Positions 19,626-59,187 of a DNA stretch of 64,000 bases are shown piece after piece. The stretch lies in NCBI GenBank assembly GCA_026770705.1, contig JANJGN010000026.1, positions 682,001 through 746,000 on the forward strand, written 5' to 3'. This DNA is from Isurus oxyrinchus. Taxonomy: Eukaryota. Below the pieces are notes generated by a model. That model was not told the origin of the DNA and made no database searches. It saw only the letters and a list, made by a program, of their open reading frames with translations. The position numbers and the translations under genes were made by a program. Positions within the stretch are counted from its first letter, which is position 1, and each line of letters begins with the position of its first letter.

Positions 19626-19646
19626 CGTCAGGCTGAACTTCATTAG
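19626..19646 (+). CDS. IgNAR: IgNAR membrane exon TM2 coding part (cytoplasmic tail RQAELH*)
   Basis: Acceptor cctttcccacag| at the end of a 134-nt intron after TM1. Six codons then TAG. Acceptor and stop position are conserved in the second copy (RQVEFQ*). Confidence 0.7.
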   Translation, partial: RQAELH

Positions 19647-28500: not shown

Positions 28501-29449
28501 AAAACATCGTTGCCCAAATCTAGAATTTGAATTCTCTCCATTATAAAATTTCGGATACAAACACTGACATTTGATGTTCTCAACAATTACGAGGTAAATT
28601 GAGTGACAATTATAATATATACGGGTAGGGCTTTATTGGCATTCAGTTAGATCATGGCTGATGAGCACCTTAACTTCGTTGTTCCGCATTGGCTCAAGAT
28701 CCTTTCTGACTTTATCTGTAATGGCAATATTTGCAGCGATTTGTCTAAATGAAATGTTAGAAACAATGGGAACTTATGCTCATTGCTAGTCATGTGGAGA
28801 TTGCATGTTCTCAACAATACAGTTAATATTCACTTTTGTTTTAAATTTTGCTACAGTGTTATTATTTAGTCACCATTTTATGCTCTGTACACGCAAAGCC
28901 TTAGAATATAATAAAATGAACTGTGTGATACCGAAGCTCACCGCTGTTTTTTTTTTTAAATGAGTGTCCCGCAATTATTTCTAACGTTTGTTTTGCTTAT
29001 ACACTTTGTTCAAGTTTTCGTTTGCTCCAATAATTAGGCTAATGAAACTCACCCGTAAATATCATTAATTATAAAACATCAACAATAGAAATAATGAGAG
29101 GTGCAATTCAATTGAACAACGAGCTTTCAATCTCCATTTATTATTGCAGCTTTTTAAATGACTAGAGCAACATGGGCTTGGGTGGATGAAGGGAACTTGA
29201 GAAACAATCTGGATCATTTAGTACATCTAATTATTCAGCAGTATATCAGATATTTAAAAACTGTACACGTATATTCTTAGTTATTGAGTATTAATTACTT
29301 TAATTAACTGAGTTCTGTGGGAACACGGCTTGAGACGAATAGGCCGTTGTACAACAAGGGACGAGAGATTAGTCCCGAACTTGGAGCAGATAGGAATCAT
29401 TGATTTATGCATGGCAAGTTGGCGACTCTGGTTATGCCAGTTATTATTG

Positions 29450-32699: not shown

Positions 32700-33955
32700 G
32701 AAGCTCAGAAGGTTGTGCTTATTCTCTGAGGGAGTAACATGTACTGTCGATGTAGGTAAACTAGTGAATATACTGTACTCAGATTTGCAGAAGGCATTTG
32801 ATAAAGTGCCAGATCAATTATTATTGCGTAAAATAAAGGCTCTCATGGTATAAGGGATAACATATTGGCATGGGTAGAATATTGACTAGCTAACGGGAAG
32901 CAGAGAGGAGGCATAAATGAGCCTTTTCAGCTTGGCAGAATGCAACGAGTGTTGTGCCACAGGGGTCAGTGCTGGGAGTTCACCTGTATATAATTTTATA
33001 AACATGACTTCGATGAAGTGATGGGTGGGAATGTTGGCAAATTTGCTGATGCTACAAAGATAGGTCAGAAACTCAGTTGTGAAGACGACATAACGAGGCT
33101 ACAAAAATACAAATAGGTTAATTGAGTAGGAACAGATCTGGCAAATGTAGTATAATGTGGGAAAATGTGAAATCGTCCATTTTGTCAGGAAGAATAAAAG
33201 AGAGGCACATTATCTAAATGTTGAGAGACTGTAGAACTTTGAGGTGCCGAGTGATCTGAGTGCCTTAGTGCATGAATCACAAAAGGCTAGTATGCAGCAC
33301 ATCAAGGAATTAGAAAAACTAACAGAATGTTATCAATAATTGGGAGGGAATTGATCACAAAAGTGAGGAGGTTATGCTTAAGTTATTCAAGACACTAGTG
33401 ACACCAGACCAGGACTGCTGTACACAGTGTTCATCACGTTTTTTTGAGGAAGGATGTAAATATGTTGGAAGCAGTTCAGAGAAGGCTTACAGGCTAATAC
33501 ATGGAATGGGAGGGTTATCTAATGAGGATATGTTGCAAAGGCTACGCTTGTATCCGCTGAAGTTTAGAAGAATAAGAGGCGAATTGGCTGAAACATAGAA
33601 TGTCCTGAGGGGTCTTGACAGGCTGGACGTGGAGAGGATGTTTCCTCTTGTAGGAGAATCAGTAACCCAAGGTAACTGTTAAGAAATAAGGAGTCACAAA
33701 TTTCAAATGGAGATGAAGCGATTATTATTTTCCTCCAGAGGGTCATGCGACTTTGGCACTCTCTTCTGGAAAAGGCGTTGGAAGAAGAGTATTTGAATAT
33801 TTTAAAGGATCTGGTGGATAGTTGGTTGGTAAGCATGGGGGCAGTTGGGATACAGTTTTGAGGTTACAATCAGATCAGTCATTGTCTTATTGATTGGCGG
33901 CGCAATTTCAAGAGGCCGAATAACCTACTCCTGCTCCTTGTTCTTATGTTCGCAT
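32700..33955 (+). mobile_element. CR1-type LINE RT/3' fragment
   Basis: DLQKAFDKVP, VPQGSVLG and KFADA motifs, plus 3' tail. Its paralog in copy B is truncated at 52279. Confidence 0.88.
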
Positions 33956-35809: not shown

Positions 35810-37150
35810 ATTTTCATTCACAGGATGTGCGTTTCGCTGGCTGGGGCAGCATTTATTGCCCATTCCTAAATCCCCTTGAACTGGTGAGCAGCTTTATGGA
35901 AACTCTGCAGCCCACAGCTTATGTGCTTGGAAGGTGCAATCGAAGGAGACTTGTTGCATTCCTGCAGTGCATCTAGTAGATGGTGCACACACCTGCTACT
36001 GTGCTGTAGCGGGTAAATGTTCACAGATGTGATGCCAATTAAGTGGGCGGCTTTGCCTGGATGGTCTCCAGCTTCTTGAGTGCTGTGGGAGCTGCACTCA
36101 TGCAGGCAAGTGGAGAGTATCCAATCACACTCTTGATTTGTGCTTTGTAGATTGGTGGACTGATTTTGGGGAGTCAGGAGGTGAGTTTCTCGTCTCAGGA
36201 TTCCTAGCCTGTGGCCTGATCTTGTAGTCAAAGTATTTATATGCCTATTCCAGTTCAATTTCTGGTCAATGTTAACCCCCAGGTAGTTGATACCTGGGGG
36301 ATTCTGCTATGGTAATGCCATTGGTAATGATTGGTGGCTAGATTCTCCCTTGTTGCAGATGGACATAGCCTATCATTTGATTAGCGCGGTTGTATCTTGC
36401 TACTTGTCAGTCCAAGCCAGCTTACTGCCCAGGTCTTGCTACATATGGACACGAACTGCTTCAGCATCAGAGGAGTCACGAATTGTGTATTAACATTGTG
36501 GAATCATCAGCAAACACCCCCACCTCTGACCTTATGATGAATGGAAGGACATTGATGAAGCCGCTGAAGATGGTTGGACTGGGATCACTACCCTGAGCAA
36601 CTCAGTGTTGTAGATTAACTGGAACAGCTTGACTAGTAGCATGGCAAGTTTTGGAGTACGAGTCTTCAGTACTATTGACGGAATATAGTCAGGGACCATC
36701 GCCTTCGTATAATCCAGAGCCTTCAGCCTTTTCTTGAGATCACGTGGAGTGAATCGAATTGTCTGGAGACTGGCATCTGTGATTATAGGGACGTGCAGAC
36801 GAGGCCAAGATGGGTCATCCACTGGGCACCACTGGCTGAAGATTGTAGCAAATGCTCCAGCAGTATCCATTGCACTGATCTGCTGGGCTCCTCCATCATT
36901 GAGGATGGGAATTGTTTGTGCAGCCTCCTCCTGCAATGAGTTGTTTAATTGTCCACCACGATTCACGACTGGATGTGGCAGGACTGCAGTAATTAGATCT
37001 GATCCATTGGTTGCGGTATGGCTTAGCTGTGCCTATCACTTGCTAATTATGCTGTTTGGCACCCAAATAGTCCTGTGTTTTAGCTCCCCCTTGTTGACAC
37101 CTCTTCTTTAGATGTGCCTGGTACTGCTACTGACATACCCTCCTGAATAC
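35810..37150 (-). mobile_element. LINE ORF2 fragment
   Basis: TIPILNDGGAQ...IRFTPRDLKKRLKALDYTKAMVPDYIP and a C-terminal WNRHINT..RSGHRLGILRR. Confidence 0.85.
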
Positions 37151-37607
37151 TTCTCTGACTCCGCCCCCATTTTCCTGATGATCTCTTAGGTTAGCTTAGC
37201 TTCTGAACTGCAAGTGATTCGAGCCTGAGTCCACCCTTCTATTCATAAAGGGGCCGAGTTCGCCTTCTAAATAGATTTTTGATTATTTTGGTGTCATTGG
37301 CTGCTAAAAGTGAAAGAGCAAACTTCAATCACATGTGATTGATCATTTTTCATGGAAAGGTGAAATTGATGCATGCATTATCATTTAAAATAGCTCCTCT
37401 GTCCTAGGTGCCATGTATGACCTCTATTGTCACCCGCAACAAGCATCCCCGTGTTTTCGGAAAATTACTTGAATCGACTTAAGGTCTTTTCATGATCCGT
37501 TACTTTGACTTCCAATGCTGCATTCCCCTGCCAGCTGCCGCCTTTGTGTTATATCTGGTCTATATTCAACCTGATCTCATTCATAACACACAGTTTATTT
37601 ATTCTAG

Positions 37608-37765
37608 ACATTCCCCAAATATAGGAATCTCTGGAAGACCAATTTGAAGAGGAAGACGGATCAGAAAACTTCGACGAGAATGTCGGCACTGCATCAACAG
37701 TAGTTGCTGTCGTCACTTTGTTCATTCTAAGTATGATATACAGCTCGTACGTGACAGTCCTTAAG
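37608..37765 (+). pseudogene. IgNAR: Second IgNAR TM1 exon with premature stop
   Basis: Same 158-nt length and splice sites as 19334-19491, with 21 differences counted. Translates DIPQI*ESLEDQFEEEDGSENFDENVGTASTVVAVVTLFILSMIYSSYVTVLK. TAG at 37622-37624 replaces ATG. Confidence 0.88.
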
Positions 37766-37900
37766 GTAATGATGGCTCACAATAGTACCATGAAACTGTG
37801 TAAATTTACTGAGCAGTTGAGTTTCTTCCCGAGATTTAGCAAAGATACAGATGAAGAACTGAAAATTTCAGTATTTGCATAATTTCAACCTTTCCCACAG

Positions 37901-37921
37901 CGTCAGGTTGAGTTTCAATAG
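37901..37921 (+). pseudogene. IgNAR: Second IgNAR TM2 exon (RQVEFQ*)
   Basis: tttcccacag|CGTCAGGTTGAGTTTCAATAG, paralogous to 19626-19646. Confidence 0.65.
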
Positions 37922-40816
37922 TAATTTCCAACGACATATTTTATAAGCCTCCCTAATATGAAGATTGAGGAGAAGACATGATGCATAATAATATTATTGC
38001 CGCATTAAGGAGACGAATATGTCAATAATGAAAAAAAGATGCATTGTTTCTAGATTCTGGATCTTTAGCCTAATGATCCGAAACAGATGCTGATGTGATA
38101 TCAAATCCCTGAAAGCATTGAGCATGAGTTTTCTGAAGTCACGAGACGTTTTCTCTGAGAGAAATGGTTTGCATGTCAATCTGGATCACTCTAAAGAGAT
38201 GAAGAAAGTATTGATTGCAGATTGATGGGAGATGGATCAATGTGAATAGATGATAAAATCATTTATTATGATTGCTGGGAGGTGGAATACAGTGCGGGTT
38301 GAGGAAAGCACTATCTCACAAGTATCTGAGGTTAATCACCGTGAAATGATTAGGAAAGTCTAACCTCTGAAATGATGGGAAATGGATCACTGTGGAGAAA
38401 CGAGGTAAACAGTGACTATGGAAGGAAATGAGGTGATGTGGCCGTTGGAGAGATGAAAACAAACATTGACTATGGAAGATTACTGAACAGGAACATTGTA
38501 AACAGGTGAGAAGGGAATTGACTACGGAACTAATGGAGAAACTGTTAGCTTTAAATCGATAAGCAAATGATACAAGATGAAGGTCGGTGGGCACAAAGAT
38601 CCACAATGATAGAAAAATAAATTATAGATGTCGGATTCAATTTTAGCAAATGACAACTGTTAAGGTTAGGATTAAACCGAAGAGGAAACATTATGTCAAG
38701 AAGAAGACAAAGGGAACTTTCACAGCTGGGTGCTCACCCTCCTCCGCCATTCATTCAGATTGTGGCTGATCTGTGCTTTAGCCAAGTAAGCACACCTTGC
38801 CTTCGTGTTTATTCATATGCCTAACTAACAAATTTCTGTCATACGCAGTTGTAAGCATTTAAATTGGCATTCAACCACAACATTTCTATCTCCATTTGGG
38901 CTGACGGAGAGAGTCTGAGATTGTGTCCAGACAATGTGTAATGAAGTGTTGCCTCGATTCGTCCCTGAAATACCTAACTCTACTGTTAATGTTTTTTCCA
39001 CGTTGTTGGTGTATGGTAGATTTTTGATTTTGAATTATTACGATATTAACAGCCATATCAAGTAATTATTTAAGCAAATCAATTAGATCACCCTGTAATC
39101 TTCAAGGCAACACAAGCCGAATGTGAAGATCATGCTGGCATAATTTTAACCGTTTTATGACCGGTGTCGTTCTGGTGAATCTCTGTTCCATCCCTGCACG
39201 CACTTCCTGATGTGGACTTCCCAGAACTGAACACAGTAACGAGAGCTTTGTACAACTGAGACAATACATCTGCTCCTTTCTATTCCACCTACCCCACGCC
39301 CTGGACTAATTCCAACTGTCCATTTGTTTCTTTAATTATTTGTACTTCTTTGCCAATAACTTTAAGGATTTAGTTGGAAAGCTAATTATTCGAGATGTTC
39401 CATTGTATTAATCGTCTCCTTGTTAGAAAGTAACAATCGTCTATCTTTCTTAATTTCAGACTAGATGACCTCACGTTTCCACAGCGACCTTTAACTATCA
39501 TTGTGCAAAGACTACCCCAATCCCCCATTGATTTAATTTTAGAATACCACTTGCGACTTTCTACTCTTTGCTGTGCTGCTTAAATGAGCAATGTCTGCAA
39601 ACTGAGGTGTCCGGCTCTCTATTCCATCTCAAACCGTTGACAGGCATCGCAGAAAATGTGCATCCCAATTCAGAGGCCCCCCTTCCAGAGACAATTAGCT
39701 GACAATTCTAACACTGGAAGCACTTTCCATTATTTACTAAAATCATTTCTATTCCAAGATGCCAGGTTTTCCAGTGCCTCCACATAACTGAATGTTTTAG
39801 TCCTTGTGCCATTCCAGTAATCTCATTGCTGATGTCTCCCAGACTTTACATCCTGAAGTGGAGTGCTCAGAACTGGAGACAATACTGATCTATGGTTCCT
39901 GGAATATTCCCCACCTCTAGCGCGAGGGGAGCTGGCGTGTAGGTCACTGGCATAATGTTATCCTTTTTTTTGAACAGGGTGCATCATTGATAAGCTTCCA
40001 TTCCCCTGTAACTAGACCCATGTCAAAGCAGAACTGCAACGTTGTGTCCAGACTATCTGTAATTGTAATCCGTACTTCACTAATCCGTTTTGGATGCATC
40101 CCATCCAGCTGGGTGAATTTTTCACTTTGTGCACTGGCAGAACATTAACTTCCTCCCTTGCATCTGTGTTTCTCCTCTCCGTTTTTTCTTTCCATTGCCA
40201 TCTCCTGACTGTGACATTTGCAGCGTTCTCTTCGTTCCTAACGACATCTTCAAAGTATTAACTTTGTCCCTAAATCGCCTCCTCTGCCTCCAGAACAGAG
40301 TTACCTTTCGCTTTCTAATCAACTCACCCTTACTTTGGCTACACGTTTTCTCTTTATAGCTTTGGAAAAGGCATTTAGGCTCACATTTCTATTACCCACT
40401 AATCTATAGCCAAATGCTCTTTGCCACTTTTATTTAGTTCATAGCTCTCCCTTTGTGCACTTTCTGTAACCAAACTATCGCCACTCTGAGAACCCCCCTT
40501 GTTCATTTACTGTTTTGCTTGCTTTCATTGATTTCAATCCATCCGGAGCACATCACCTTTCCATTCCCCGAAATTAACAGCACCTCCATTGAATATTTTC
40601 ACATATGATTAGTCCTTGTAAGAATCCATGTGTACTTTAAAACTAATGATATGATCATTAGATTCTCATATTATCTCTGTCTGCTACATGCTTCACCCAA
40701 TTCCTGAGAACTAGATCCGTCACTGCTTCCTTCTTTGAAGAGGGATAACATACCGTGACCATGACAACTATCTTATCCATATTGCAGCAGATCCTCCATG
40801 ACGTTTTGTTTTATAC

Positions 40817-41421
40817 CAGCCAGGACTTTCCCCTCGGCGATTTGGGGGCGTTGCCCAGTCGCCGAGGTGAAAATTATGCAGGATGACGTCGGGAGGATTC
40901 CCCGATGTCCTCCCGGTCCATTTAATTTTTTAGGAAGGCGGGTGGAGAACGAAATCAGCTGTCCACCCACCGACCTTCCAATGGGCAATTGAGGCCTTTG
41001 ACAGGCTGGTTTAAGTAATCAAAGATCTGCCCCTCCAACCTTAAGGCTGGCGGGCAGGCCAGGAGCCCGAGCGGGCTCCAGATTATTGATGAAACTTCAT
41101 CCACTGGACGGATGAAGTTTCATATCCGTATTGTAAAAGATTAATAAAGTGTATGTGGGCTTTATTAACATGTCCCATCTCGGATGACATTGTCACATGA
41201 GCGGGGCATGTTAATATTTTTTTAATGTTTCGAATTTTAAAGTGTTTGACACTGTCAGTATTCTCCCTGAGACAGAACATTGCCTCAGAGAGAAGTGACA
41301 GTTGCGGATTCCCTCCCACTTAAAATGGCGGCAGGCCTCGTTTCAGTGGCGGGGGTCGGCTGCACGCCCGCTGCCATGCTGGGGGGATCCGCCCACCATC
41401 CAAGGGCAACATCCTGCCCAC
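40817..41421. mobile_element. MITE-like insertion specific to copy B
   Basis: Absent from copy A (empty site gatactgttt near 22576-22585). Imperfect TIRs gccaggactttccc / gggcaacatcctgccc and internal hairpins. Confidence 0.8.
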
Positions 41422-43558
41422 TGTTTAATTGAGCATTGTATAATAAATGATTCCCCTATCGTCATTACGCCGAATTTCTCGCAAATTTCTGTGATGATCC
41501 TGTAATTTTGCGCTCCTCCATTTTCTTCCCACTATTTGGTGCTCTGTAGTTTACACCTAGATCCTAATAGTTTTTCTGCTATTTATCAGTTCTACTGAAA
41601 CAAATTCCATTTTTGAACTCTCAAGGACACCAACATTTTCTCATGTTTACACATCATATTTGATCAAAGCGCCACCCTCCCTCCATTTTTTCTTTCTTTA
41701 TCTTTCCTCACTACATTGCGACATGATCACAAAGTGGCCACGTCGTTCTTCATTTCATCTAGGTCTCTGTTATTGCCATTACAGCATAATGCTATGTGGC
41801 CTCTAGAGCCTGCAGTGCAATGATGTTAATTAACATTTACTGGGAATTAATATGCATAGACATAATGTGATCTTGGATTGTTTTGCAATTCTCCCTGCAT
41901 TAACCCTTCTAACTCGGAGCTGTTCTTCAATCAAATCTAATTTGTTTCTTTAAGCTCTCTCTGCATCTTTTCTCCGTCCTCTAGTTCCTCATAGGCTGTC
42001 TGGGGGTGCGCCCGCCTTCACTGCCATACTCATTTAAAGTCTCCACCACCACATGGTTAACATTCCTGCGACGGCATTGATTCCAGTCCTCTTTGTGTGC
42101 AAGGCGTCCACCTTGTACAGGTCCCAGCAACTCCTTAACTGGCCCCACTGGCCCCGTAATTTGAAGCATCTTCTGAACAGTTTCACCACACGCTCATTAG
42201 CCTGGTTTATGTTGCTGCTCTTGCACTAACTGTTCTGTAACACTGGGAATAATCGAGAGATTATTAACATGAAGGTCAGCTCTAGGTACCAAAACTAATT
42301 CGGTACCACCTAAATCCTTTCCCTACCTATACCATTGGCTGAAAAATGGGCTGTGACGTTTGGTCGTTCCCCTTCCCTTCTCAAAATCCTCTCCATCCAA
42401 TCAGTGATGTTACTGACTTTGACACTATTGAGGTAAAGTGAAACTCATGTTGCTGGTAGCAGAAGCACCGGCCAATTCCCTAGACTATCGAGTTCCCTAA
42501 GGAAATGCAATCCTCCACTTTGTGATTCACCGAAGTGTTTCAATCTGACCCATAGTGCCGTGGATGATTACCAGACAGCTCTATTCAAAGCCCTGAAAAC
42601 CGATTTGAATATGTAACAATCCTGGAGCATTCCTGCACTGTGAGCATTTCCATAACCTATCTGATGGCCAACCATTTGCTAACCTCCTGAACACTGGATC
42701 GGCAGGATGACAAACTCCTGGGATTAGTGCACTTCAGGAGATTCTCAGACCTGCAGTAGATCCAGCTGCTCCTGAATTAACATATACGTGTTGTTTGAGT
42801 TCCATTCGACCTTATGCATATTTATTATTTTTAACATGTTGTAAATATGATGTTTGTTACGAATTTTGATTTGGGTAATGTTGGTGTCCTCTACCATGGT
42901 ACCGTAAACCGAAAGCCCATTTGCTTCCTCAGGCAGAAGTAAACCATCCTATGACATTATTTCGAAGAAGGGTAGGGAAGCTCTCCCCGATGCTCTGGTA
43001 AATATTTATCACTCAATCAATATCATGAATAGGATCTGGTCATTTTAACAATGAGCTTTCTGGTAGATTGTAGTGGGCAAATCGACTGCCGGGTTCCTGC
43101 ATTATAAAAATGGTTACAGCTCAGAAGCATTTCACTGGCCAGAAAGTGTGCTGGGTGTTCTGGGGTGGTGAATAGCTCTCCATAAATGCAATTCTTCATT
43201 TTTTTAAATTAATATTTCTCTCTCTTTTCTATAATAATTTTCCAACTGTCTGTCTATTTACTTGTTCATCTATATTTTTGAATAAAGGCTAATTCCATAG
43301 ATTGCACTTGGGTTTAGACCCCTCTGCATAATCCAAAAGGAGACCGACAAATTTATACAGAGTTGGAGACAACGGATATGTCTGAAGTTGAACCAGCTGC
43401 TAAACACTAAATTTTGAACAATTACATCTTCAATTATGAACCATTTTTTGTTTCTCTCTCGCACTTGATATGTTCCACTCATCTCTCTACTTTTCCATCT
43501 CACTTTCTAACTAACCATCTCTCCACCTGTCATCTACCTGTCTATATCTGTATCTGCT

Positions 43559-43743
43559 NNNNNNNNNNNNNNNNNNNNNNNNNNNNNNNNNNNNNNNNNN
43601 NNNNNNNNNNNNNNNNNNNNNNNNNNNNNNNNNNNNNNNNNNNNNNNNNNNNNNNNNNNNNNNNNNNNNNNNNNNNNNNNNNNNNNNNNNNNNNNNNNNN
43701 NNNNNNNNNNNNNNNNNNNNNNNNNNNNNNNNNNNNNNNNNNN
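43559..43743. other. Assembly gap (185 N)
   Basis: Run of n. The paralogous site in copy A (~24700-24775) contains a short CA repeat. Confidence 0.99.
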
Positions 43744-46700
43744 GAGGATCGGGAACAAGTTCTGCTTTCACATGTAGAAAGCAATGGATAATTAGAATGT
43801 GAATTCAGTTCACATTCCAAAGTCATTTTCTCAGTCCTTATTTCCCCCGTGGCAATATAAATTTCTAACTGCACATCTGCAATATAGATTGCGAACATTC
43901 ACTATTAGGAAGTGATTACACACAGAAACTAATAACAATGTTTTTTTCTCTTAGCATGCCCTTCCTCTCTGACAATGCTGTAGATCGCAGTCTATACTGC
44001 AAACAACACCACTTCTCTCCTCCCGAAACTGAACAAATTTAACCATTTAGCGACAATATTGTCCATGTAACATCAACGTAATTTTTCAATCTTATGTCAT
44101 GATCCATGATATTAAAATGGAAGGTAAGTAAGTATATACTTAACTTGTGAGATGATACTGCAAAACAATTCACTGGATTTCGAAGGAACAGAGGAGAGCA
44201 TATGTACAATCACTGACAATACTAACCAAGAGGGTGCATTATACTTTGAGCAGAACATGGCATTGCAATAAAAAAGTAGCTTAATTTAGCTTGCGGATAA
44301 ATGAATGACAATTTATTTGCTCGTAAATACCATGTGAGTACCGGCTTTTTGAGTGTAGGGATAATCAACGGTAATAAACTGGAAATGGGAAAGTTCTGAA
44401 CAGATACACACGAATAAAGGAAATTGTTGGCCAGGTCAATATTTCATTAAAAGCTAGCGGGTGATCAAAAATAATAATGCAATGGTGTTTTTTCTGATCC
44501 AAAGATATTAAGTAAGCAACAATTTTTAAAGAAGCGCCAATCACATCTCATTTGAAACCCAACAATCAGATCAGAGGAACAGCAGATGGATAAGTTAGGT
44601 GTGCTAGGTGTCAAGCAATGATTCACGAGTATCTTCATGTTTATTTCTGAAAATTGTATAATTTTTGCTGGGTATTTAAAATCAGATAATAAATTATTCA
44701 CTTTTCATTCATAAATTATGAAGACACATGGCAAGTGAGATTTTCTGTACTTAGGGTTATGAATGTTAATTGTGGGGAGTAATTACCAAAACCCAGAAAA
44801 CTCCCTATCTATCACGATAGTTATCCATAGTATTGTTGTTGTCGTTATTGTTGTGTACCCCGGAATTTCCAGTTGAATTGAACATCATCTCTCATTTCGT
44901 TACTCACTGGTTTTAATGTTATGCTTTTTTTCACTGCAGGTGAAATAGCAGCTGCTTCACCAGAGGGCACTTCAGCTTTATATTCAAACTTTGTTGGCGA
45001 AGTTCTCTTGGGGATGGATTGTGTCACTCTATCAGCGTCAGCAGCTGCTCCATTGCAGCATTTCACCTTGTGGTTGCTGCATAGTCTCAGCCAATCCATG
45101 GCAACTCTACTTAATTTACTTCTATTAGCTCATAAATTAGCGATACCTTTCTTAAGCAGCAGCGCTGAATGCAAGTTTTCATCATTACAACAACCCTGTA
45201 TGTTCAGCAAATCCCACGGAATCAATTAAAATAAATTCAGAGGAGATCCTTGAATACCGCTATGTATTAGTATTACTTTGAAAATAGTAGGCGTGTTTCC
45301 TGTTTCCGTCAATTCATGACGATTTGAAATGGAAGTTTAACAAGATTAACGCCCTTACCACGCTCGTAGATAATCCTCCATGCTTGGAGAACTTGCCCTT
45401 GATCTGGGATAAGTTATGCCTCGCCGGCAGTTACAGAAGGTCCAGTCATTCCCTATAGGAAAATAAATAACAACACATGTGAATAATCCCAAAAACACAT
45501 CGTTGAAACAAGATCTGCAGCAACAGTAAGCTTTCCTCTGGTCACCACTTCCATTAATAATTCCATTTTGTTAGGAAAGATTTTCTCTTCTGGCATTTGT
45601 TCCAGCATTTTTAATAGACCATAGCTGAATGTGCAAATGATTTAATTAGTGCTACGTAACTGAGCTAATCTTCAAAAGGTTTTGTGCATATTTTACATAC
45701 AGCACCCAGAAGAGCAGAGCATTGCATCTTCGCTTACCAACGTCATGTGAGTAACATAGACATTGATTCCTGACACAGTCGCACGGTCTTACATTCTTGT
45801 AGGGATCCAATGGAAACTAAAGGCCCACCGAACTGCTTGTCAGCTACACAGATACCTGAAACATATGTTGAAAGATAAAACTCTCGTTTCAGCGCATACT
45901 TATGAATTCCTCGGGACGTTTGTTGCTATGAGATCCCCCTCCCGCATCTCTCCAAATCAATTCCTCAAGTTCTATTTCTGGCCAAATTTCTAACATGTTT
46001 GAAGAAAATCCGTTAAGGACTGAAGACGGGAGTACCTATATCACGGAATCGCAGAATCATAATGGCACAGAAGGAGGCCATTCGGCCCATAGTGTCTGCA
46101 CCGGCTCCCCAAATGAGCATAACGACCAAGTGTCATTGTCCTGCCTTTTCCCCTACCCCTGCACATTGTTTCTATTCAAATAAATATCCGATGCACTTCT
46201 GAACCTGCATTCAACATGCTTCCACCATATTTCCAGGCAACGCATTCCAGAGCCACTCGTTGTTTGACAGCATTTTCGCTCACGTCACATTTGTCTCGTT
46301 TGCAAATCATTTTAAGTCTGTGCCTTCTCGTTCTTCATCCTTTTACGACCGGCAATAGCTTCTCCTTATCTAATCTATTCAGGTTCCTCGTGATTTTGAA
46401 CATCTCTATCCAATCTACCCTTAGCCTTCATCTCTCCAAGAAGAACAGTCACAACCTCTTAAATATATGCACAAAGCTGAAGATTCTCATCCGTGGAGCC
46501 ATTCTGGTAAACCTCTTCTGCACTTTCTCCCATGTGTTTTCATCTTCCGATAATGTTGCGCCAAGAACTGTACACAATACTCCAGCTGAGGCCTAGCGAG
46601 TGTCTTATATAAAATCAGCTGACCTCCGTCCTCTTGTACATTATGCCCTTATTAGCAAAACCCATTATACAATCTACTTTATTAACTGCTCTCTTCACCT

Positions 46701-49700
46701 GTCCAGTCATATTCAATTATCTATGCACATATAGACCCCAGGTCTTTCTCCAACTACACCCTCTTCAAAATTTTATCCCTTATTTTATACTGTCTGTACA
46801 TGTTCATCCTACAAAAGACAACACTTCACACTTCTCCATATTGAATTTCATCTGCCATCTACCTCCCCAGTCCATCAACTTGGCAATGTCCTCTTGAAGT
46901 TCAGCATTGTGCTCCTCACTGTTTACAATACCCCCGAGCTGAGCATCATCCGCAAGCGTTCAAATTCTCCCCGGCACACCAAGGTCTAGATCATTAACAT
47001 ACATCAGGAAAACCAAGGGTCCCACCGCCGACCCCTGGGGAAGTCCACTACAAATCTCCCTCCAGCCGGAAAGATATCCATTGGCCATTAGTCTCCGCCT
47101 CCTATTTTTTAAAGATAATTTTGCATGCACGTTGTTACTGTCCCTTTTATTCCATGAGTAATAACTTTTCTCACAAGTCTGCTGTTCTACATTGTATCAA
47201 ATGCCTTTTGAAATCCACGTGCACCACTTCAAAAGCATTGCCCTCATTGATTTTTTCTGTTACCTCTTCAAATAACTCCAGCAAGTTCTTTAAACACGAT
47301 TTCCCCCTTAGAAATCCATGCTGGCTCTTGCTTATCAACAAATATTTTTGCATGTGACTGCTAATTCTCTCCGTCACAATTTTTTTTCCCAGAATCTTGC
47401 CCATCAATGAAGTTAAGCTGACTGGTCTGTAATTATCTGGCTTATAATTACAGCCCTTTTTTGAACATGGGCATAATGCTTGCAATTCTCCAGCCCTTTC
47501 CATAAAACCTTGTTGCCCAAATCTAGGAGGTGAATTCTCTCCATTATACAATTTCAGACACAAACGCTGATACTTGATTTTCTCAACAGTTACGACATAA
47601 ATTGAGTGACAATTATTAGATATATGGATAGGTATTTTTTTGCATTCAGTTCGATCATGGCTGATGTGCACTTTAACTTCGGTGTTCCGCCTTTGCTCAA
47701 GATCCTTTGTAGACGTTATCTGTAACGGCAATCTTTGAGGTGATTTGTCTAAATGAAATGTTAGAAACATTGGGAATTTATGCCCATTGCTAGTCATGTG
47801 GAGATTGCATGTTCTCAACAATACATTTAATATTCATCTTTGTTTTAAATGTTTCTCCAGTTTATTACATAGTCACTATTTTATACTCTGTACACGCAAA
47901 CGTTTCGAATATAATAAAATAAGCTGTGTGAACTGAGTGTCCCGCCTTTATTTCTAACATTTGTTTTGCTTTTACACTTTGTTCAAGTTTCCGTTTGCTC
48001 CAATTATTAGATTAATGAAACTCACCCGTAAATATCATTAATTATAAAACATCAAAAATAAAAATAACGAGAGATGCAATTCAATTGAACAATGAGGTTA
48101 TTAAACCCCGTTTATTATTGCAGCTATTTAATTGACCAGAGCAACATAGGCTTGGGTGGACAAACAGAATTTGGGAAATAATCCAGACCATCTATTAGGT
48201 CTAATTATTCCACAGCATATCAGATATTTAAACACGGTCCACATATATTCTTAGTATTCACTCTTAGCAGCTATTTCTAGATAATTATTTTGTTGAATTA
48301 GCATTCATTAATTTACTGAAGTAACGCTTATGATTCAATACAGTTAGATTTATTAACTGTGTTCTGTGGGAACACGGCTTGACTTGAAAAGGCGGTTATG
48401 CAACCAGGAACGAGAGCTTAGTCCCGAAGTTGGAGCAGCTGGGAATTATTGATTTATTCATGGCCTCTGGCTAGCTAGTTATTATTGACCATCCGTAATT
48501 GCACTAGAAAGGTGGTGATGCGCCGCCTTAATGAAATCCTGTTGCCCACGAGGTTTATGTGCAAAAACATTTAGTCAGGAAGGCAGTTAGAGGGCTTTGG
48601 TCCAGCAGCAATGCTGGAACGGTGACATATTTCCAAGTCAGGGGGGTGTGGTTTGTAGGGGAACTTGTATTCGGTGGTGTTCCGTTTCATCTACAGCCTT
48701 TGTCCTTCAAGTTGGCAGAGGTCACGGGATTGTACCGTGCTCTCGATGGAGGCTTGGTGAGTTGCTGAAGGTCCTTTTGTGTTGTACGTACCGCTATCAC
48801 TACCTGTCACTGATGGAGGGAGTAAGTGTTTAAGGCGGTGGATAAGGTGCCATTGAAGGGGGCATCATCTCCTGGATGTTGCCGAGTTTCCTGAGTGCTG
48901 TTGGAGCTGTATTCATCTGGGCAAGTGGAAAATATTCTACTACAGTCCTGACTTGTGCCTTGTAGATCGTGCACACTTCTACGGGGTAATGAGATGAGTT
49001 TCTCACTGCTGAGTTCCTAGCCTGTGAACTGCTCTTTTCGCCAAATTATTCATCTGGATGGTACAGATCAGTTTCTGTCCGATAGTAATCCCCACAATGT
49101 TGATATTGGGGGGATTCGGAGATAGCCATGTCACTGATTGTCAGACGGAAATGATTAGATTCTCTCATATTGGAGATGGAAATTGCCTAATAATTGTATT
49201 GAATGAATGTTAGTTTCAACTTATCAGCCCACGTCTAAATGTTGTCCTGTTCTTCCTGCCAAAGGTCAGGAGCTGCTTCAGTATCTGGTGCGGATATTCA
49301 TGTTGAACCTTGTATAATCATCATTGAACATCCCCACTTCTGACCTTATGATGGAAGGAAGGTCACTGATGAAGCAGCGGGAGATTTATGGGCCGAGATC
49401 ACTACACATGGATCACATCCAGGAATATCCTGGGACTAAGATGACTGTCCATTAAAAATCACAATGATCTTCTTTTGTGCTAAGTATGACTCTCACCAGT
49501 TTCTCATTGACTCCAGTTTTTTTAGTGTTCCTTGATGCCACACTTGGTCACATGATGCCTTGATGTCAACAGCATTCATGTTCACCTCACCTCTTGAGTT
49601 CAATTCTCGTTCATGCTTGGATCATGAATGTAATTGCGTTCAGAACTGAGTAGCGATGATGCAACACAAACTGAGCGTCAGTGAGCACCTCTTTATGACA

Positions 49701-52442
49701 CTGTTGAAAACACCTCCCATCACTTTGTTAATAACCAAGAGTAAATTGATGGTGGGGTAATTGGCCGTGTTGGATTTGTCCCTTCATTTTGTGCACACTC
49801 TAAAATTGGGAAACGTTCTGCTTTGCAGGGTATATGCCAGTGTTCCAAATACACTGGAACAGCTTGGTTCGGGCTACAGCTAACTACGGTGGACCAGACT
49901 TCAGCACGATTGCTGGAATGTTGCCAGGGCTCGAAACCTTTGCAGTTTCTTCATGAAGTTGGGTGAATCGAATTGGCTGAAGTCTGTCTCTTCTGATGCT
50001 GCTGACCTCAAGAGCAGGGAGAACTCAACCATCCACTGGGCATTTCTGGCTGAAGATTGTTGCAAATGATTCAGCTTTGCCTTTTCACTAATGTTCTGGG
50101 CTGGCCCATTATTGGTGATGAGGATATTTATGGATTCGCATCGTCTTGTTAGTTGTTGACTTAGCCAAGCCCTTTTATGACTGGATGTGGCAGGACTGCA
50201 GACGTTCAATATACTATATTCGTTGCAGGTTCACTTACCTCTCTCTCTTGCATGCTGTTTCTGCTCTTTGGCAATCAAGTAGCATGTTGATCTCACTTCG
50301 CCATGTTGTCACCTCAATTTTAGGCCTGCCTGATTCTGCCCAACCCATGTCCTCCTCCACTCTTCATTCAACCAGAGTGATTTGATGGTAGTGGTGCAGT
50401 GGGCTATTTGCTGGGCCTCGAGGTTATAGATTGCGGTTGAATAGAATTCCACTGCTGCTGGTGGTCCACATTGCCTCATGAATGTCTAGTTTAAAGTTGC
50501 AAGATGTGTTGGAAATCAATCCCAAAAAGCACGTTGGTAGGTGCCATACAACAGGAATCACTCTTCTAAGTGTTCCACAAGATAAAATTTAGATTAGCAG
50601 TCCCTCTCTGATATGAAACCTAGGCATTCTGGTTAAGATGCCTAGTTAACAGAAATGCTTATGTCACTTTCAGTTATCAGTCGCCAACTCAAAGTTGCTA
50701 CCTGAATAGATGTTATTTACTATAGCAGAAAGCTGACATAGCAGTTGCATCTTGGTTTGAGCCATCTTCTCCCAAAAGAAAAGTATACAGAGTTAGACGA
50801 CAAAGTGCGATGACAAGGCTTGCCTGCGACGAGGAACAAGTGCCAATTTGGTGTAAGAGGGAAATTGGTGCAAAGGGAGAAGGAGGTGCCCTTTTTGTAC
50901 TATTCTGGGGCCTTCAGTAACTGGTAGAATTTTTTCTGCCAAAAAGCTATGGGGCATAATTTGCTATTAGTTTAGCTGTATCAATTAGTATCTAATTGAC
51001 TTGTTAATTAAATAAGATTATTCAGACATGACAGCGATGCTGGTATGCCGTAACTCAAAAACATCAGAATCTGTGGAATGATTTTAATCCCAAAATCGGT
51101 GGCAAGTGACTTCGCCTCTGATCTGTTGAACAATGTTATGGTTTCTGCGGTGCACAGATACCTCAACTAAGAAGATTGGTAACACAATTATGAGGGCTCT
51201 TTTATTTCAAGGGGTGAAACCACATGCACCAATCTCTGAAAGTCCCTTAACAGGTCCTGTCTCTCGAGATGCTCATATGTTCAGCGTGATGATTAATTGA
51301 ACATAGACAAAAAAATCTCTCTGATGGTGTAGAGTAGTTTTAGATATGCTCTGTAAAGGCATTCCACAACAAGCAGCAACCAGAGTCCCAGACTTTGTAT
51401 GGAGTCAGGAAGGAGGAATTGCTACCAGACATTGTGTTTCAGGAGACACTCTCGCCCCTTTAGATCAGGTAGAAAGTTAGCATCTTTCAATGACCACGGA
51501 CAGCGTGTTATGACTGTGAGATAGGCAGGGACCAGGATGCTGTGGATACTGATGGCGGGTTCAGAGCAGTTCATTTTGGCCAAGAGACCGAGGTGCTTGC
51601 GACCTATTTGAATGAACAGAAAGGCTGCAGTTTGTGGAACAAACTGAGGATGGCACCAGGATGCAGGATAGCATTCAATGGGTGTGGGGGTGGTAAGGAG
51701 GAGTTGGGTAGTGGAAAGAAATGTCGTAGTACCAGTGTTAGAGTGTAGACGCTGTTACTTGTAGCTGCGGCTTGAAGCTCAGAACTTTGTGCTTATTATT
51801 TGAGGGAGTAACATGTGCTGTCGATGTAGGGGAACTGGTGAATATACTGTAGTTAGATTTGCAGCAGGTATTTGATAAAATGCCAGATCAGGTGTTATTG
51901 CATAAAGTAAAAGCTCCCATGGTATAAGGTAGAAGATTGGCTGGCTAACGGGAAGCAGAGAGGAGACATAAATGGGCCTTTTCATCTTGGCTGGATGTAA
52001 CGAGTGTTGTGCCACAGGGGTCACTGCTGGGTGTTCAACTGTGTACAATTTATATTAATGATTTCGATGAAGTGATGGTGGGAAGGTTGGCAAATGTGCT
52101 GATGCTGCAAAGATAGGTCAGAAACTCAGTTGTGAAGAGGAAATAAGGAGCCTACAAAAATACAAATAGTTTAAGTGAGTGGGCAAAAATCTGGTAAATG
52201 TAGTATAATGTGGGAAAATGTGAAATTGTCCATTTTGTCAGGAAGAATAAAGGAGAAGCACTTTAACTAAATATTGAGATATTGGTCCTTAAAGGTGGTG
52301 CCTTCGAGATCGCTTTATTTCCCCCATTGTTATTTGAAGTTTCATTTCGAGTGAGAGTTTTAAGTCGTTAAGTTATGGATACAAGAATATAAAAACATAC
52401 CTCTAAATGTATGCTTGTTTGTGTGCCAAGAAGCATTTGTAT

Positions 52443-54272
52443 AGAACCATATAAAAGTTACAGCACAGCAGGAGGCCATTCTGCCCATCTTTTCCATGCC
52501 AGCCCGAGGACATCCAGGTGCCCTTTCTAATCCCACCTTCCTGCACCCAGCCCATAGCCCTGCGGCTTACAGCACTTAAGGTCCATATCCAGGTACTTTT
52601 TAAAATAATTTATAGTTTCTGCCTCTACCAGCAACTTGGGCAGCGAATTCCAGACACCCACTAACTTCTACACAAAAAGTTCTTCCTCATGTCCCCCCTA
52701 CACCTTCTGCCACTTATCTTGAATCTATGTCCCCTGGTTCTAGAATTCTCCACCAAGGAAAACAATTTTATCATGTACAATCTATCTATTTCCCTCATAA
52801 TTTTGTACACCTCAATCAAGTCACCTCTCAGCCTTCTTTGTTCCAAGTAAAATAACCACAACCTATCCAATCTCTCCTCGTAGCTACACTTTTCTAACCC
52901 TGGCAACATTCTTGTAAACCTCCACTGCACTCTCTCCAGAACTTTTTCGTCCTTCCTGTAATGTGGTGACCAGAACTGCAGACAATACTCCAGTTGTGGC
53001 CTCACCAGTGTTTTATACAATTCCAACATTATATCCTTACTTTTATATTCTGTACCTCTGCCAATGAAGGAGAGCATTCCATATGCCTTCTTTACAACTT
53101 TGTCAGCTTGAACTGCTGCCTTCAGGGACCTGTGTACTTGTACGCCAAGGTCTCTCGCTTCATCTACCCCTCTTAGGTTATTCCCATTTATTTTGTAATG
53201 CCTGTAACTGTTTGACCTCCCTAAATGTATGACCTCACACGCCTCTATGTAAAGATTGGAAAATCATCCTCAGAGCAGCTGTTATATCCTCCCTGACTTC
53301 CTTCAGCAGCCTCGGAAACAATCCTGGTGACTTATAACTTTTCAAGGATTTCAACCCTTCGAGTACTTCCTGTCTCTTTATGACTATCCTGTCCAATATC
53401 TCACAGTATTTCTCCTGGACTACCATATCTACATCCCCCCTTTCCTTTGCAAACACGGAGACAAAATGTTCTTTCAAATCCCTTCCCACAGCCCCTGCAT
53501 CTGCGCAGAAGTTTCCATCTTCATCTCTGATATGTTCTTTAACTTCTAAGGTATTGGTAAAACATCTTTGGATTATCTTTGACTTAATTTGGTAAGCTGT
53601 TTGTATGCCCTCTCTTTGATTTCCTTATTTCCCTTTTACTACTTCCCTACACTTCCTATATTCATGTAGGCTATCTGCAGTACTTAATTCTTTGTGCCTA
53701 TCATTTGCTTTCTTTTTCTGTTTGATCTTCCCGTGTATTCCTCTAGACAACCAGGGAGGTCTAGATTTAGCAGTACCACTCTTATTTTTGTCGGAGACAT
53801 GTCTATTTTGTACTATTACGATCTCGCTTTTTAGTGCTTCCCACGAGGTTTCCACCGTTTTATCCTCCAGCAGTGCTGTCCAGTCCACCTGAGCCGAGTC
53901 CCTTCTCATTTCTGCAAAATTTGCCTTCCCCCAGTTCAAGACTTTTACTCCTCCCTTATCTCTGTCTTTTTCCATGGTAATGCTAAATCTGACTGAATTG
54001 TGATCACTCTCCACGATATGGACACGAACTGTCACATCACCCAAATGCCCATTTTCGTTCCCCAAGACAAGGTCTAGAATTGCATCTCCTCTCCTTGAGT
54101 TTGTCACTAACTGCTTGAAAAAGAAAATACTGCACACACTGCATGAAGTTTTCTCCCTCAGTGCCCCTTATATTGCTTGAATCCCAGTTGATATCATGAT
54201 AGTTGAAGTCTCCTACTATTATTGTCCCCGTGTTCTTACAAGCAGAAGTTTGCCTACATATTTGTGCTTCTC
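52443..54272 (-). mobile_element. Relatively well-preserved CR1 LINE with internal deletions, nested in the ERV region
   Basis: Minus ORFs: endonuclease end (RGDAILDLVLGN...ESDHNSVRF) and C-terminal LYKTLVRPQLEYCLQFWSPHYRKD. Confidence 0.92.
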
Positions 54273-55939
54273 ACATATATGAGTTTTAATTCCGTAAATT
54301 GTCATTTGTATGTGTAGTTCAGCACTGTTGGGTTGAAAACCACATGTTAGTTTAAAGGAAAAGTACACTAAAACATTCCAAAGTTTTGACTATAAAGTTT
54401 GAGTTGAGATTTCTGGTAAAAATGATCGCAGTTTGAAGATATCATGATGCTAGGCAAGGTTAGATGAACCAATCTTTGTACCTACCACCCCCTTGCAGAC
54501 TAGCATCACCAGCTTCCACGCTGATTGGGATTGATACAGACGAGTTGCTTTAACTCATACAAGTTCGTATTATAAATTCTGAAGGACAAAATGGTTACCT
54601 GAATTTCAAGGAATTCTAGGAAAACCAATAGTCATAAACACACGGTATAAGTGGTTCCATTGGATAAAAAGGGGTTGTCTTGAAGAGATGAATTCAATAT
54701 GAAAAGGAATCTGCAATCCAACACACTGTTACTTGAAGTTGGGACAACGCTTGAGATGTAAAGTGCAGTGCAATTTAACAGGTTACTTCGAATAACGAGG
54801 ATGCTATCCAAAGATAAAGAATGTGTCGATAAACCTATGGGAATTATAGCTCTGATGCAAATACATACGCATAAGAAAGAGGTAGTTTTAATTTTGATAG
54901 CGTAAATTAGGTTTTTTATAAAATTTAAAATGTTGTGGTTTGGTTCCTGATATCTTCTCAAAAGGGAATTTTCATTTTAAAACGTTTGACTACAATTGTC
55001 ACTAATTCAAATGCTGCAAGCTTTCGTATCTGTAAGTCTGTTCCCAAAATATGAAGCTAAGCTCAACATCTTGACAAAGTTTGGCAGAGACACAATTTTG
55101 GCCTAGTTAATGAGTCTGGAATAATTCTAAGAAACGGGTCAGACACAATTTAGTGGGTTACATTTGAGTCAATAAAATGTTGTTTGAGAAGAAGATAAGG
55201 AACATGTCAATGCCTGATTTCTGTTTTTAAAACTGTTATTTTTTATTTATTTTAAAGTCTCTCCAAGCAACATGAACTAGATAAGACTGTAGCTGTTGCA
55301 TGTGTAAAATGGCATGAGGCAAGTAGAAGAAAGAGTTAGGGAAAGAGGACACCATATATAAACAGTTTTAAGGGAACTGAATTTGATAATCTGGCCATCA
55401 AGTGAGACATTGGAAACGCACAGTGCGAGATAAACAAAGACTAGAGACAAGGATCCTCGGTGACATGGAATAGTTAATATGGCCTAAAGAGCATGGAAAC
55501 ATTACAAACGGTCAAGGTAATAGAGAAACTGACATCAAGAGAACCTTATGATGATCCTGGTCAGGGGAAAAAAACTTAGAGGTAAAACAATGTGGAATCT
55601 AAAGTTCAGGAATTGAAATGCAAGGAGAATTAATACTTAACAACAATATACCACAAGGGTACAGGTAAAGGGAAAGCTGTAAAAAATGCGAAATAGATGC
55701 ATTACTGATTGTATTAATGTACCTTTGAACTACAAAAAGTAAGACCACAGGATTAACCCCAAGATGACAGGCAGTTAATCGGCTCCTAGAGACAACTGCC
55801 ACTAGGAGTGAAGATACTGAGCCATTGAAAGAAAGGATAAGAACGTGCACTGTAGAGTTCTGTAGGCAGTTTAAGGAATTGAGGGCCGACGTGGGACAGC
55901 GGCAGGAGACAGTAGGTTGGAAGGAGTGGAGAATGTGTA

Positions 55940-56525
55940 ACCAGATGGACTCAGATCATGGAACTCATTTCACAGGAAGAGCTATTAAAGAAATGTATAA
56001 ATTTCAATATAAACAGAAATTCCACACTCCCTACCAGCCCAGGAGTTCGGGGATGGTGGAAAGGATGAACTGAACTTTAAAAAAAAACATCAATCACAAA
56101 AGCAATTCAAGAGACAGAGAACAGCCCAATATTCTAATGCGCCTGAGGGCTACCACAAGCAGGACGGCCAGGTTCACCCCAATTTAAATAATGACAAGGG
56201 GAGCAACGCAGTTACCCGAGGGAATCATAGTAGGAGTGGGAGTTGTAGGGCCATTAAAAGGAAGGATGCAAGACTGTGTGAGGGAAATAAGTAACCAATT
56301 GCATGTGTTAAGGAAGGAAGTCAGAAATCGACAGGTGATTAAGGACATGGAAACAGGCAAATCCAAAGAGCAACAATGGACCAATTGGGGAATAAGATGA
56401 TGGTTAACATGAGCCCGGAGCGTACAGGCATGGACCATACAAGGTAGGTATGACAGGCGATGCAATTGCACTTGTAGACATGAGAACGGGAGGTAAATGG
56501 AGGCATTACACAGAGCTAAAGAGAC
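55940..56525 (+). pseudogene. pol: Retroviral integrase remnant (catalytic core and C-terminus)
   Basis: DSDHGTHFTG...KQKFHTPYQPRSSGMVERMN*TLK (second D and the E of DDE), then ILMRLRAT...MTRG..QLPE and a GPYKV motif near 56433. Contains stops and frameshifts. Confidence 0.88.
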
Positions 56526-56587
56526 ATGACAATTAACCAAGTGGCAACCCAGAGAATGGGAGCCGATGTTAATGTCTCCACAGATCT

Positions 56588-58380
56588 ATGATCCTGGTCA
56601 TGGGCGTATCAGTACTGGCAACAAGGTCAGGGATCATAACTGCTCATCCCGCACCGCAGGAGGAACTTTGGTACAGCACGGACAGTGCCGAATGTGACAC
56701 GTAACAGGGAATCATAAATGTTACAGTAGGAGAACAAGTGCTTTTGAATTGTAGTAAGGGTGTGCTTCAGATCTTGCTTGAGTGGTCCTCCCAAAAGTAG
56801 AGATTAGTACCACTACTCAGCCACCTCCCACATCTACTTCCACAGTCCGAGTAGAGATAATTGAAACCTCTGAAATCACACCAACTGACCCACCTTGTCT
56901 GACTATGCATCCAGGACCGACGAATGGCTAGGTACTGGTTAATCAGAAGTTTTGTATGATAACATACACCATGACCCGTAGTCTTGAACATATCCGGGAT
57001 TTCCCCGGCCCCGTGGTGCTCAACCCATATCCGAGCACTATATATGGCTCTAGTGGGCCCCTTGATGACTGACGCATCTCAGTTGAATGGCGGGATGCGA
57101 TCAGGCTTGGGAGAGCACCGCTTTAAGTGTAGCCTGACATATGATGCCTCTACGATATCCAAATTAGGGATATCAGTGTTTGTCTGGACCCTGAGCTTTA
57201 CGGTGAAGGAGGTTCAAGAGTGGGGACAGAGAATTCGTAACACCCAATTAAACACAGACCAGGACATCACAGGATTAATTCACAACCTGGCTACCGTGCT
57301 CAAAAGTCACGCAGGGACAATCAACAAACTGATTAAAATAGGGAAAAATATTTCAGACGAAGCAACCAGAAATTATGTTTCCAGCACCTATGGATCTTGG
57401 GCACTGCAACAAGCCCGAGAGAATTTAAGACAGTTTAATGGAAGAGTAGTTCCTTTATTGAACATTTATGTAGTCTTTCACGACAACACAAGGATCATAA
57501 CTTGACCGGTTGCCATCGCAGACGTTTAACACGCATATATAGGATGAATGTTGAATGTATAGTGAATAGTAATATGCTAATAGGCATTGTATTAGTAATA
57601 CCTCTCATACCTATGTCAACACCCGGCAGGCCATTATATAAAGTAGAACATATTGGGGTTATACGGGAGGATTTTTATATTAGGTATCATGACATTCCAC
57701 CATATGTAGTAGACAAAGAAGGGATTATTGTTAGCACCATATTAGGAAAGTGTAGGATAGAAGCCACCGCAGTAGTATGCCCACCCAATATAATGAGACA
57801 GATGTAGCTTAGTGGATTTAAAACAGCAGCAAACTGTATAATGGAAAATGTATGGGCTGCAAAAGAACCGACCCATGTTGCATACACGGGGAATGGGAGA
57901 TATTGTATAACCACGTGGCGGCAAAGATCCAGTACTGGAACAACCACATATGCCCCATCCATAATCATTCAGTGTGCCTACACCCACAGGCGCCAGCAAG
58001 GGTAGGAAGGTGGAACTGGTCGAAATATACAAGAGAGGAACTATTACTATTCAGGTCAAGGAAAGCGTTAAAAAGAACCTGACAGCATTCAAACCAATTC
58101 TCCTATGAAATTCCCTTATTACCTGAACACCTAACCACTATTCATAGACAGGCTCAGCAGATGTACAGAACTCACCATACACTGCAGCAACATGTTAGAG
58201 CCTTAAAAGAGGATATCGAGACAAAGGGTTTCTCCACATGATGGTGCTGGAACCGGGGCTCAAACGTTAAGATACGCCCCTGGATTCGGATTATCTCCAA
58301 TACCCTAGTTATACTTCAACAGATATTATTTATCTATCAAACACACTTGATTCATCCCACCTGGAAGTCACAGAAAATGT
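56588..58380 (+). pseudogene. env: env-like gene resembling paramyxovirus/pneumovirus class I fusion (F) glycoprotein
   Basis: Acceptor tctccacag before an ATG and hydrophobic leader. Contains F2-like WCSTHIRALYMALVGPL, a degenerate furin site RFK(C), heptads, IPPYVVDKEGIIVSTILGKCRIEATAVVCPPN, a C-terminal heptad, a Trp-rich segment and a hydrophobic anchor. Several stops and frameshifts. Confidence 0.75.
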
Positions 58381-58572
58381 GGCGCTGTGGGCATTTTAAC
58401 AGGTAGAGAAGGAATTTGACAAGTTAGAGCTTTAAATTAAAGGGCCAGATGATACAGATGGTCCGGCCAGTGCTTTCTATGCACCAAAGCTGGATACCTA
58501 GCCTGGTTCAATGGTTGGCAGTACATAAAGAGGGCGGACAGCACCACTGTAGTTTGGGCTAGGCCAAGGGCC

Positions 58573-59187
58573 AAAAGAGGGGACTGTAAGGGCGGAATAT
58601 AGCGGTACATTAAGAACTTATTGAAAGGGAGTCGACTACTTAAAATATCCAAGCAGTCAACGCCGGCAAGGGTAATTAAAATCCAGGCTGGACAGGGAGG
58701 AATCTGAACCTTGCACACCCTCAGAGCCTGTGACCATCAGCAAGGCCAGGCCGAGCAGAAAGGAAGCAAATGTGATAGACTGGGTGTCTTAGGAGTCCGG
58801 CCGGCGCCTTAGGTTGAAAAACAACCAAGATTGGGTCTGTTTATACCAGATAGGGAAAGAACAGATGGTCCTAGTAGAGATGGGAGGGAAGGTTTCCGCT
58901 GGGGGTGAAAGTAGGGACAGATGATGCGTCTAATTTGGTACCTTTGTTAAGAGAGAGATGACTATTTAATCTAAACCTATCTGTTGACGAGATTGGAATC
59001 TGGAAACTGTTCTTGTACGTGATCAATAGTGCATAAATATGGTGAACACTTGTGGTTTAGCAGAGTTATATCTCAAGATGCATTGGGACGGTTCTTTCCT
59101 TCCAATTGCTCGAATAAACGATCGTGACCTGTACCTGAGACTCTTGTGGTCCCTGTGTCAATGTGACAGCAACAATGGGTATCCTCA
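58573..59187 (+). repeat. Polypurine tract and 3' LTR
   Basis: PPT aaaagagggg(ac) directly before TG at 58585. TATA-like cataaat near 59032, AATAAA at 59113-59118, ends ...atcctCA at 59187 where LINE sequence starts abruptly. Confidence 0.7.

Follow-up and report, generated by a model that had tools for sequence, protein, structure and literature searches.

The window, by which we mean the whole stretch of 64,000 nucleotides of Isurus oxyrinchus DNA analysed here, contains the remnant of an endogenous retrovirus (ERV). A broken env gene (56588-58390, + strand) is flanked by an integrase remnant on its 5′ side and by a polypurine tract and a 3′ LTR on its 3′ side. The integrase remnant (55939-56560, +) comprises the second half of the core and the C-terminal part, with stops inside, and is recognized by the Pfam family rve_3 with an E-value of 0.004, which is below the curated cut-off of Pfam. 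The polypurine tract (58573-58583, +) is evident from the sequence and lies in the same place in other copies of the family, and the 3′ LTR of about 590 nt with TG...CA ends (58585-59174, +) matches both LTRs of the family copies. The first-pass annotation had placed an env gene between a retroviral integrase and a polypurine tract/LTR, and this arrangement is indeed found. Upstream of the integrase remnant is the non-coding internal region that the deleted subfamily carries in place of pro, RT, and RNase H (54279-55938, +; 79-87% identical and collinear with family copies), the 3′ end of which is, as judged by eye, apparently a decayed second copy of the 3′ part of integrase. The collinearity is broken by ORF pieces on the opposite strand (52600-54270, −), likely a LINE fragment inserted in the element; the label is based on the look of the translation, and a Pfam search of this segment gave no family. 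A detached piece of the internal region (52285-52442, +) aligns by blastn to a two-LTR family copy at 84% identity. The LTR and gag further 5′ are absent from the window copy, which has one LTR only.

The env gene was delimited with the aid of a natural copy in the same genome (L016), in which the env frame is open for 727 codons. By tblastn, the window env aligns with L016 as seven pieces that are spread over all three frames and are 58-76% identical, and env is therefore assigned to about 56588-58390 as a broken gene without most of its N-terminal domain. The start thus lies near 56588, not at 56970 as annotated earlier. In order, the gene encodes a signal peptide, a stub of the N-terminal domain, a Pro/Thr linker, an F2-like part, a degenerate cleavage site, and an F1-like part consisting of heptad A, Cys-rich β domains, heptad B, a Trp-rich segment, and an anchor; the fold is taken from the open-frame relative. 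The F2-like Cys/Tyr helix, the heptads, the Trp-rich segment, and the anchor, all proposed in the first-pass annotation, align to the open-frame copy in the same range of 58-76% identity, and the peptide at 57694-57789 shares one frame with the IGIVLVIPLI..LYKVEHIG before it, as claimed. As to the furin-type site proposed there, R-x-K-R is found at the cleavage position of the open copy, and the window copy is degenerate at this position. The gene has several frame changes and stops in addition to the loss of most of the N-terminal domain, and no ORF of 60 aa is present on the + strand between env and the LTR. The window copy is a dead, 5′-truncated insertion that is ordinary in itself and likely makes no protein.

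The surroundings of the element are also duplicated. A large tandem duplication (about 18900-33200 versus 37150-52280, 82-90% identical) has its second copy end at the start of the element remnant, and this may be how the 5′ end came to be lost. A run of N occupies 43559-43743. The segment 48815-64000 is 99.8% identical to G000:C38 (loci L024 and L025) over the 15.2 kb compared; either the segment was duplicated recently in the genome, or the assembly contains it twice.

A search of the 4.98-Gb genome with an 88-residue piece from the window gave at least 150 scored matches (of 1398 candidates). The two-LTR copies are about 7 kb long and consist of an LTR, gag, a non-coding stretch, an integrase remnant, env, and an LTR, with no RT; this commonest form of the family is without protease, RT, and RNase H. 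Among the 20 loci L026-L045, no RT of the family's own was found, the non-coding stretch gave no pol match, and 19 lack the central part of the N-terminal domain of Env, which is missing from the window too. These loci were chosen as the best matches to the window, and the counts therefore describe the window's subfamily. In L032 (1424-2706 and 9639-9989) and L084, the family copy sits within the pol of another ERV family, and the RT found there is foreign.

Searching with the deleted N-terminal piece led to copies that retain pol (L016, L143, L147, L150, L154, and L156). Domains of RT, tether, RNase H, and integrase are assigned by Pfam in the RT-bearing members (tether and RNase H in L154 and L156); the combination of tether and RNase H is common to retroviruses generally. 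Of the loci L026-L045, 13 of 20 yielded LTR pairs, with K2P distances of 0.027-0.104 (12 of the 13 at or below 0.065), and five pairs among L141-L160 give 0.018-0.177. Distances of 0.03-0.065 correspond to about 7-15 million years at a mammalian rate, and to tenfold older ages at the rate that PMC4422223 assumes for sharks; they date pairs of the family, the window copy having a single LTR. A genomic tRNA matches the primer site with its 3′ end; it is tRNA-Ser(AGA) in one of two loci checked and is called Phe in the other. Sharks provide the closest Env proteins in the databases (48-52% for horn shark), followed by skate and frogs, which by itself points to a shark host.

The sequence evidence for an F-like Env comes from profiles. 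Single-sequence searches of Pfam and the PDB gave no F family for either the window pieces or the open copy, and Fusion_gly was never assigned by Pfam to any shark Env. A profile of 55 natural pieces matches the F0 protein of human parainfluenza virus 3 (hPIV3) with an E-value of 0.004 over 215 positions, slightly behind two TLE1 coiled-coil chains, and pairs the P-x-Y..C..C motif of the family with that of hPIV3 F0, in line with the earlier claim that the motif is F-like. With a 103-row Env profile, a henipavirus-type F chimera ranks first, at an E-value of only 0.025. The ESM Atlas neighbours of Env are clusters of Gypsy env, Baculo_F, and Fusion_gly at 0.93-0.95, with the recognition value under the threshold of the tool. 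A gamma-type Env is not indicated: the family Env has no TLV_coat match in Pfam, and CX6CC, stated to be missing in the first-pass annotation, is absent from the open copy. Env begins with an ordinary signal peptide. The pattern R-x-K/R-R fits the cleavage position in 17 of 56 fetched family stretches that span the site, some loci overlapping, and the fusion-peptide region is only mildly hydrophobic. Peptide patterns found no relatives of Env in viral contigs.

The structure of the natural open-frame relative was predicted by AlphaFold2 from the 103-row alignment. The mean pLDDT is 62, mostly 60-90 over residues 200-724, compared with only 35 from the single sequence. The model contains the nested F2/F1 core, namely a β sheet spanning the cleavage site, a helical bundle, and Cys-rich β domains between the heptads. 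A Foldseek search of the PDB, performed along the lines of the structural check suggested in the first-pass annotation, places F of respiratory syncytial virus (RSV) at the top (E 3.2e-8), followed by Hendra and Nipah F, and all rows listed are paramyxo- or pneumovirus F. In the VIA search, hPIV3 F gives a Z-score of 8.9 (314 residues aligned, rmsd 15.6) and foamy Env 7.4, and all 50 of the 50 rows listed are F proteins or foamy Env. The TM-scores are low, at 0.2-0.35; these values and the high rmsd likely reflect a monomer model between conformations. In the BFVD, Foldseek matches Env of walleye epidermal hyperplasia virus 1 (WEHV-1; E 4e-9), Env of walleye dermal sarcoma virus (WDSV; 2.5e-7), and feline foamy Env (1.3e-4), which sit among lispivirus, baculovirus, and paramyxovirus fusogens; the second-best fold match there is A0A384ZVF2 (E 5e-11, 928 aa). 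Four methods agree in predicting a paramyxovirus-F-type (class Ib) fusion protein, and the claim of an F-like envelope is supported by profile, language-model features, and the predicted fold of the natural relative. The observation of an F-like env in the window is real; the interpretation attached to it is partly supported, as described below.

The N-terminal domain (residues 14-193) is at a pLDDT under 50, and nothing usable was obtained from the model for it. It has neither a structural match nor a PDB profile match, and reaches only 0.76 in the Atlas. An Ig fold was considered for this domain and is unsupported by the PDB profile search or the Atlas value; weak Ig hints come from relatives only (Ig_3 with E 0.011 in a sister family, V-set with E 0.045, and one UniRef name).

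The Env profile of the family reaches well beyond the sharks. In pairwise comparisons by hhalign, it matches the Env of lokiretroviruses at 97.5% (E 7e-12, 388 columns), WDSV Env at 96.3% (E 1.5e-9, 342 columns), SnRV Env at 90.8% (E 1.2e-6), and, weakly, foamy Env at 82.7%, with a control protein that carries the gamma-type Env family PF00429 at 0.2%; all are pairwise values. The HMMER scores are 48 bits for lokiretroviruses, 33 for WDSV, and 16 for SnRV, against 1-3 bits for the best of 100 shuffles. The SnRV score (15.6 bits) also exceeds the best of 200 shuffles (4.7), and foamy Env and the gamma-type control are no better than shuffles in HMMER. In the Env tree, 3 of the 12 inner branches are starred and long branches meet, and the order of the groups is not given. 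The genome holds at least three further ERV families with homologous Env at about 25-35% identity (L046-L085 and L086-L140), two of which show Env behind gag-pro-RT-RNase H-integrase. Frogs also carry homologous Env (the P0065 cluster, P0036, P0058, and P0055); of the 15 members listed from Mantella, 12 are full proteins of 677 aa, which suggests a young expansion. Env pieces fused into predicted shark host proteins (P0002, P0003, P0046, and P0057; fbxo15, Niban-like, and cadherin-like) are either exon captures or gene-model errors.

The placement of the family was based on RT-bearing members and on integrase. The SnRV reference is a 10,688-nt viral record whose RT matches the SnRV row in the supplement of PMC7947760 and whose length is as given in PMC12193657; the lokiretrovirus references are three metagenome loci matching the RT rows published in that supplement, and WDSV is represented by one record matching the WDSV RT row. 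RT trees were built from 64 rows (rooted on Gypsy) and then from 37 rows, after 27 of the 64 that were short, redundant, or delta had been dropped; the trees are without fish foamy-like, ERV-L/S, beta, alpha, and lenti references. In the 64-row tree, lokiretroviruses form the sister group of all remaining retroviruses (100/97), in agreement with PMC7947760. The family (100/100) groups first with a teleost clade (97/95), and the two together join SnRV with shark, frog, and coelacanth ERVs (94/86); the join of the family to the teleost clade is flagged by the tool as long branches meeting. In the 37-row tree, the family branches from an open fork that lies within the retrovirus clade (100/98). 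In the integrase tree, the window remnant groups with the integrases of its own family (97/99). A lokiretrovirus integrase (L163, L172) groups in this tree with the SnRV-like integrases of frog and coelacanth (P0007 and P0008, 99/96), which carry NYNRIN-like database names; lokiretroviruses may have acquired this gene from an SnRV-like virus, and perhaps their env as well.

According to the first-pass annotation, the element may be a chondrichthyan member of the lokiretroviruses. The best match of the Env profile is indeed lokiretrovirus Env, and the dual RNase H and R-x-K-R are as in lokiretroviruses. However, the approximately unbiased (AU) test rejects joining the family to them for RT (p 0.0093) and for integrase (p 0.0075). 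The RT motif of the family is of the SnRV type and differs from every lokiretrovirus row compared from the supplement of PMC7947760, and the exact lokiretrovirus RT pattern has no match in the genome or the viral contigs, exact matching being blind to decayed copies. In addition, PMC7947760 lists chondrichthyan genomes without matches in its own screen. We conclude from the RT and integrase tests and this screen that the family is not a lokiretrovirus; that reading is largely refuted and now highly improbable. Also unlikely, though to a lesser degree, is a position outside the SnRV clade proper, with the family as either a basal retrovirus lineage of its own or a foamy-like virus of fish. The open fork at which the family and the teleost clade stand in the 37-row tree would agree with such a position, as would the F-like nature of foamy Env described in PMC11468914 and the shark foamy-like ERVs reported in PMC5512871. 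Contrarily, grouping with mammalian foamy viruses is weakly rejected (p 0.035), the two rows of fish foamy-like viruses compared have other RT motifs, and the signal peptide of the family Env is an ordinary one.

The envelope could also have a history of its own, either captured independently by this lineage, as the first-pass annotation offered as its second option, or swapped in from a lokiretrovirus. F-like fusogens do move between groups, judging from 10.1101/2023.10.26.564294, the Viro3D preprint, and the BFVD matches, and the Env tree fixes no order of groups while lokiretrovirus Env scores highest. Yet in this genome three or more RT families are followed by a homologous Env, which is also found in frogs, SnRV, and WDSV; an independent capture is not needed, the Envs of SnRV, WDSV, lokiretroviruses, and (weakly) foamy viruses matching the same profile, and we regard capture or swap as a minority reading with perhaps some chance of being right. 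A Gypsy/errantivirus-type retrotransposon with an F-type env has practically no probability left. Errantiviruses carry such an env (10.1101/2023.10.26.564294), and the top Atlas neighbour has the Gypsy env family in 46% of its members, but the RT tree places the family inside Retroviridae, and tether and RNase H are present. The window element is thus, with good probability, a dead copy of a polymerase-less ERV whose RT-bearing relatives belong inside Retroviridae, likely near the SnRV-like group, and whose Env is predicted to be of the F type. The family is best filed, though not firmly, as SnRV-like in a broad sense, the exact branch being unstable.

Since the Envs of SnRV, WDSV, lokiretroviruses, and, weakly, foamy viruses match one profile, an F-like Env is no hallmark of lokiretroviruses and may be ancestral. 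The simplest reading is an F-type Env in the retroviral ancestor with later replacement: the class Ib type would persist in lokiretroviruses and foamy viruses, in the SnRV clade and walleye epsilonretroviruses, and in a radiation of shark and frog ERVs, with gamma/beta-type Envs as its later replacement. We give this reading an even chance. The occurrence of an F-type Env in shark and frog ERVs within Retroviridae, and in SnRV and the walleye viruses by profile and predicted fold, favours it among the scenarios for the origin of retroviral Env, four of which are left open in PMC7947760. Orthoretrovirus Env is filed under class Ia in the foamy Env structure paper (PMC11468914). If the ancestral reading is true, SnRV and WDSV, two replicating orthoretroviruses, would carry class Ib fusogens. 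The findings in SnRV and the walleye viruses make the question of the ancestral Env testable on viruses already growing in culture. A literature search, with most subscription papers outside its reach, found no description of the Env of SnRV, an epsilonretrovirus, or a shark ERV as F-like, and the text of the Viro3D preprint, as far as accessible, names no epsilon or snakehead virus.

By analogy with F proteins and foamy Env, furin would cut the Env trimer at R-x-K-R, and the F2-like strands would stay woven into the β core after cleavage. Heptad A would then extend and heptad B zip back, resulting in membrane fusion. The variable N-terminal domain on its Pro/Thr stalk is a likely receptor binder. 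The loss of RT and most of this domain in the window's subfamily suggests spread by helper enzymes within cells; the enzymes would have been borrowed from complete relatives, and the spread was likely within germ cells and not by reinfection.

Compared with known systems, the family shares different features with different groups. WDSV and WEHV-1 (Epsilonretrovirus) match its Env by profile and Foldseek BFVD, but their RT is in the gamma/epsilon clade, far from the family. Foamy Env (PDB 8rm0; PMC11468914) has the same structural core, as seen in the VIA comparison, whereas its profile match is weak, its HMMER score is at shuffle level, and the family RT does not group with mammalian foamy viruses. 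The F proteins of RSV, hPIV3, Nipah, and Hendra agree with the family Env in its predicted fold and in the order of domains from about residue 208 to 596, and the Cys motif aligns, but the identity is 8-14%, and the family Env adds the N-terminal domain and the Pro/Thr stalk in a retroviral context. Lokiretroviruses, as described in PMC7947760, are alike in the F-like Env, R-x-K-R, and tether and RNase H; the family RT and integrase are outside their clade, and their Env lacks an N-terminal domain ahead of the F2-like part. Some lokiretroviruses also carry an smc gene. Relative to SnRV, the N-terminal domain of the family is shorter, its cytoplasmic tail is short (136 residues in SnRV), and no accessory ORF is seen; the join between SnRV and the branch of the family is not firm, and the window copy is without RT. 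SnRV and the ERVs of its clade nevertheless resemble the family in the type of RT motif and in a homologous Env, and SnRV groups with sister families of the same genome (98/92 in the 64-row and 89/92 in the 37-row RT tree). SnRV-like ERVs have already been published for the elephant shark as CmiERV lineage I (PMC4422223 and PMC12193657).
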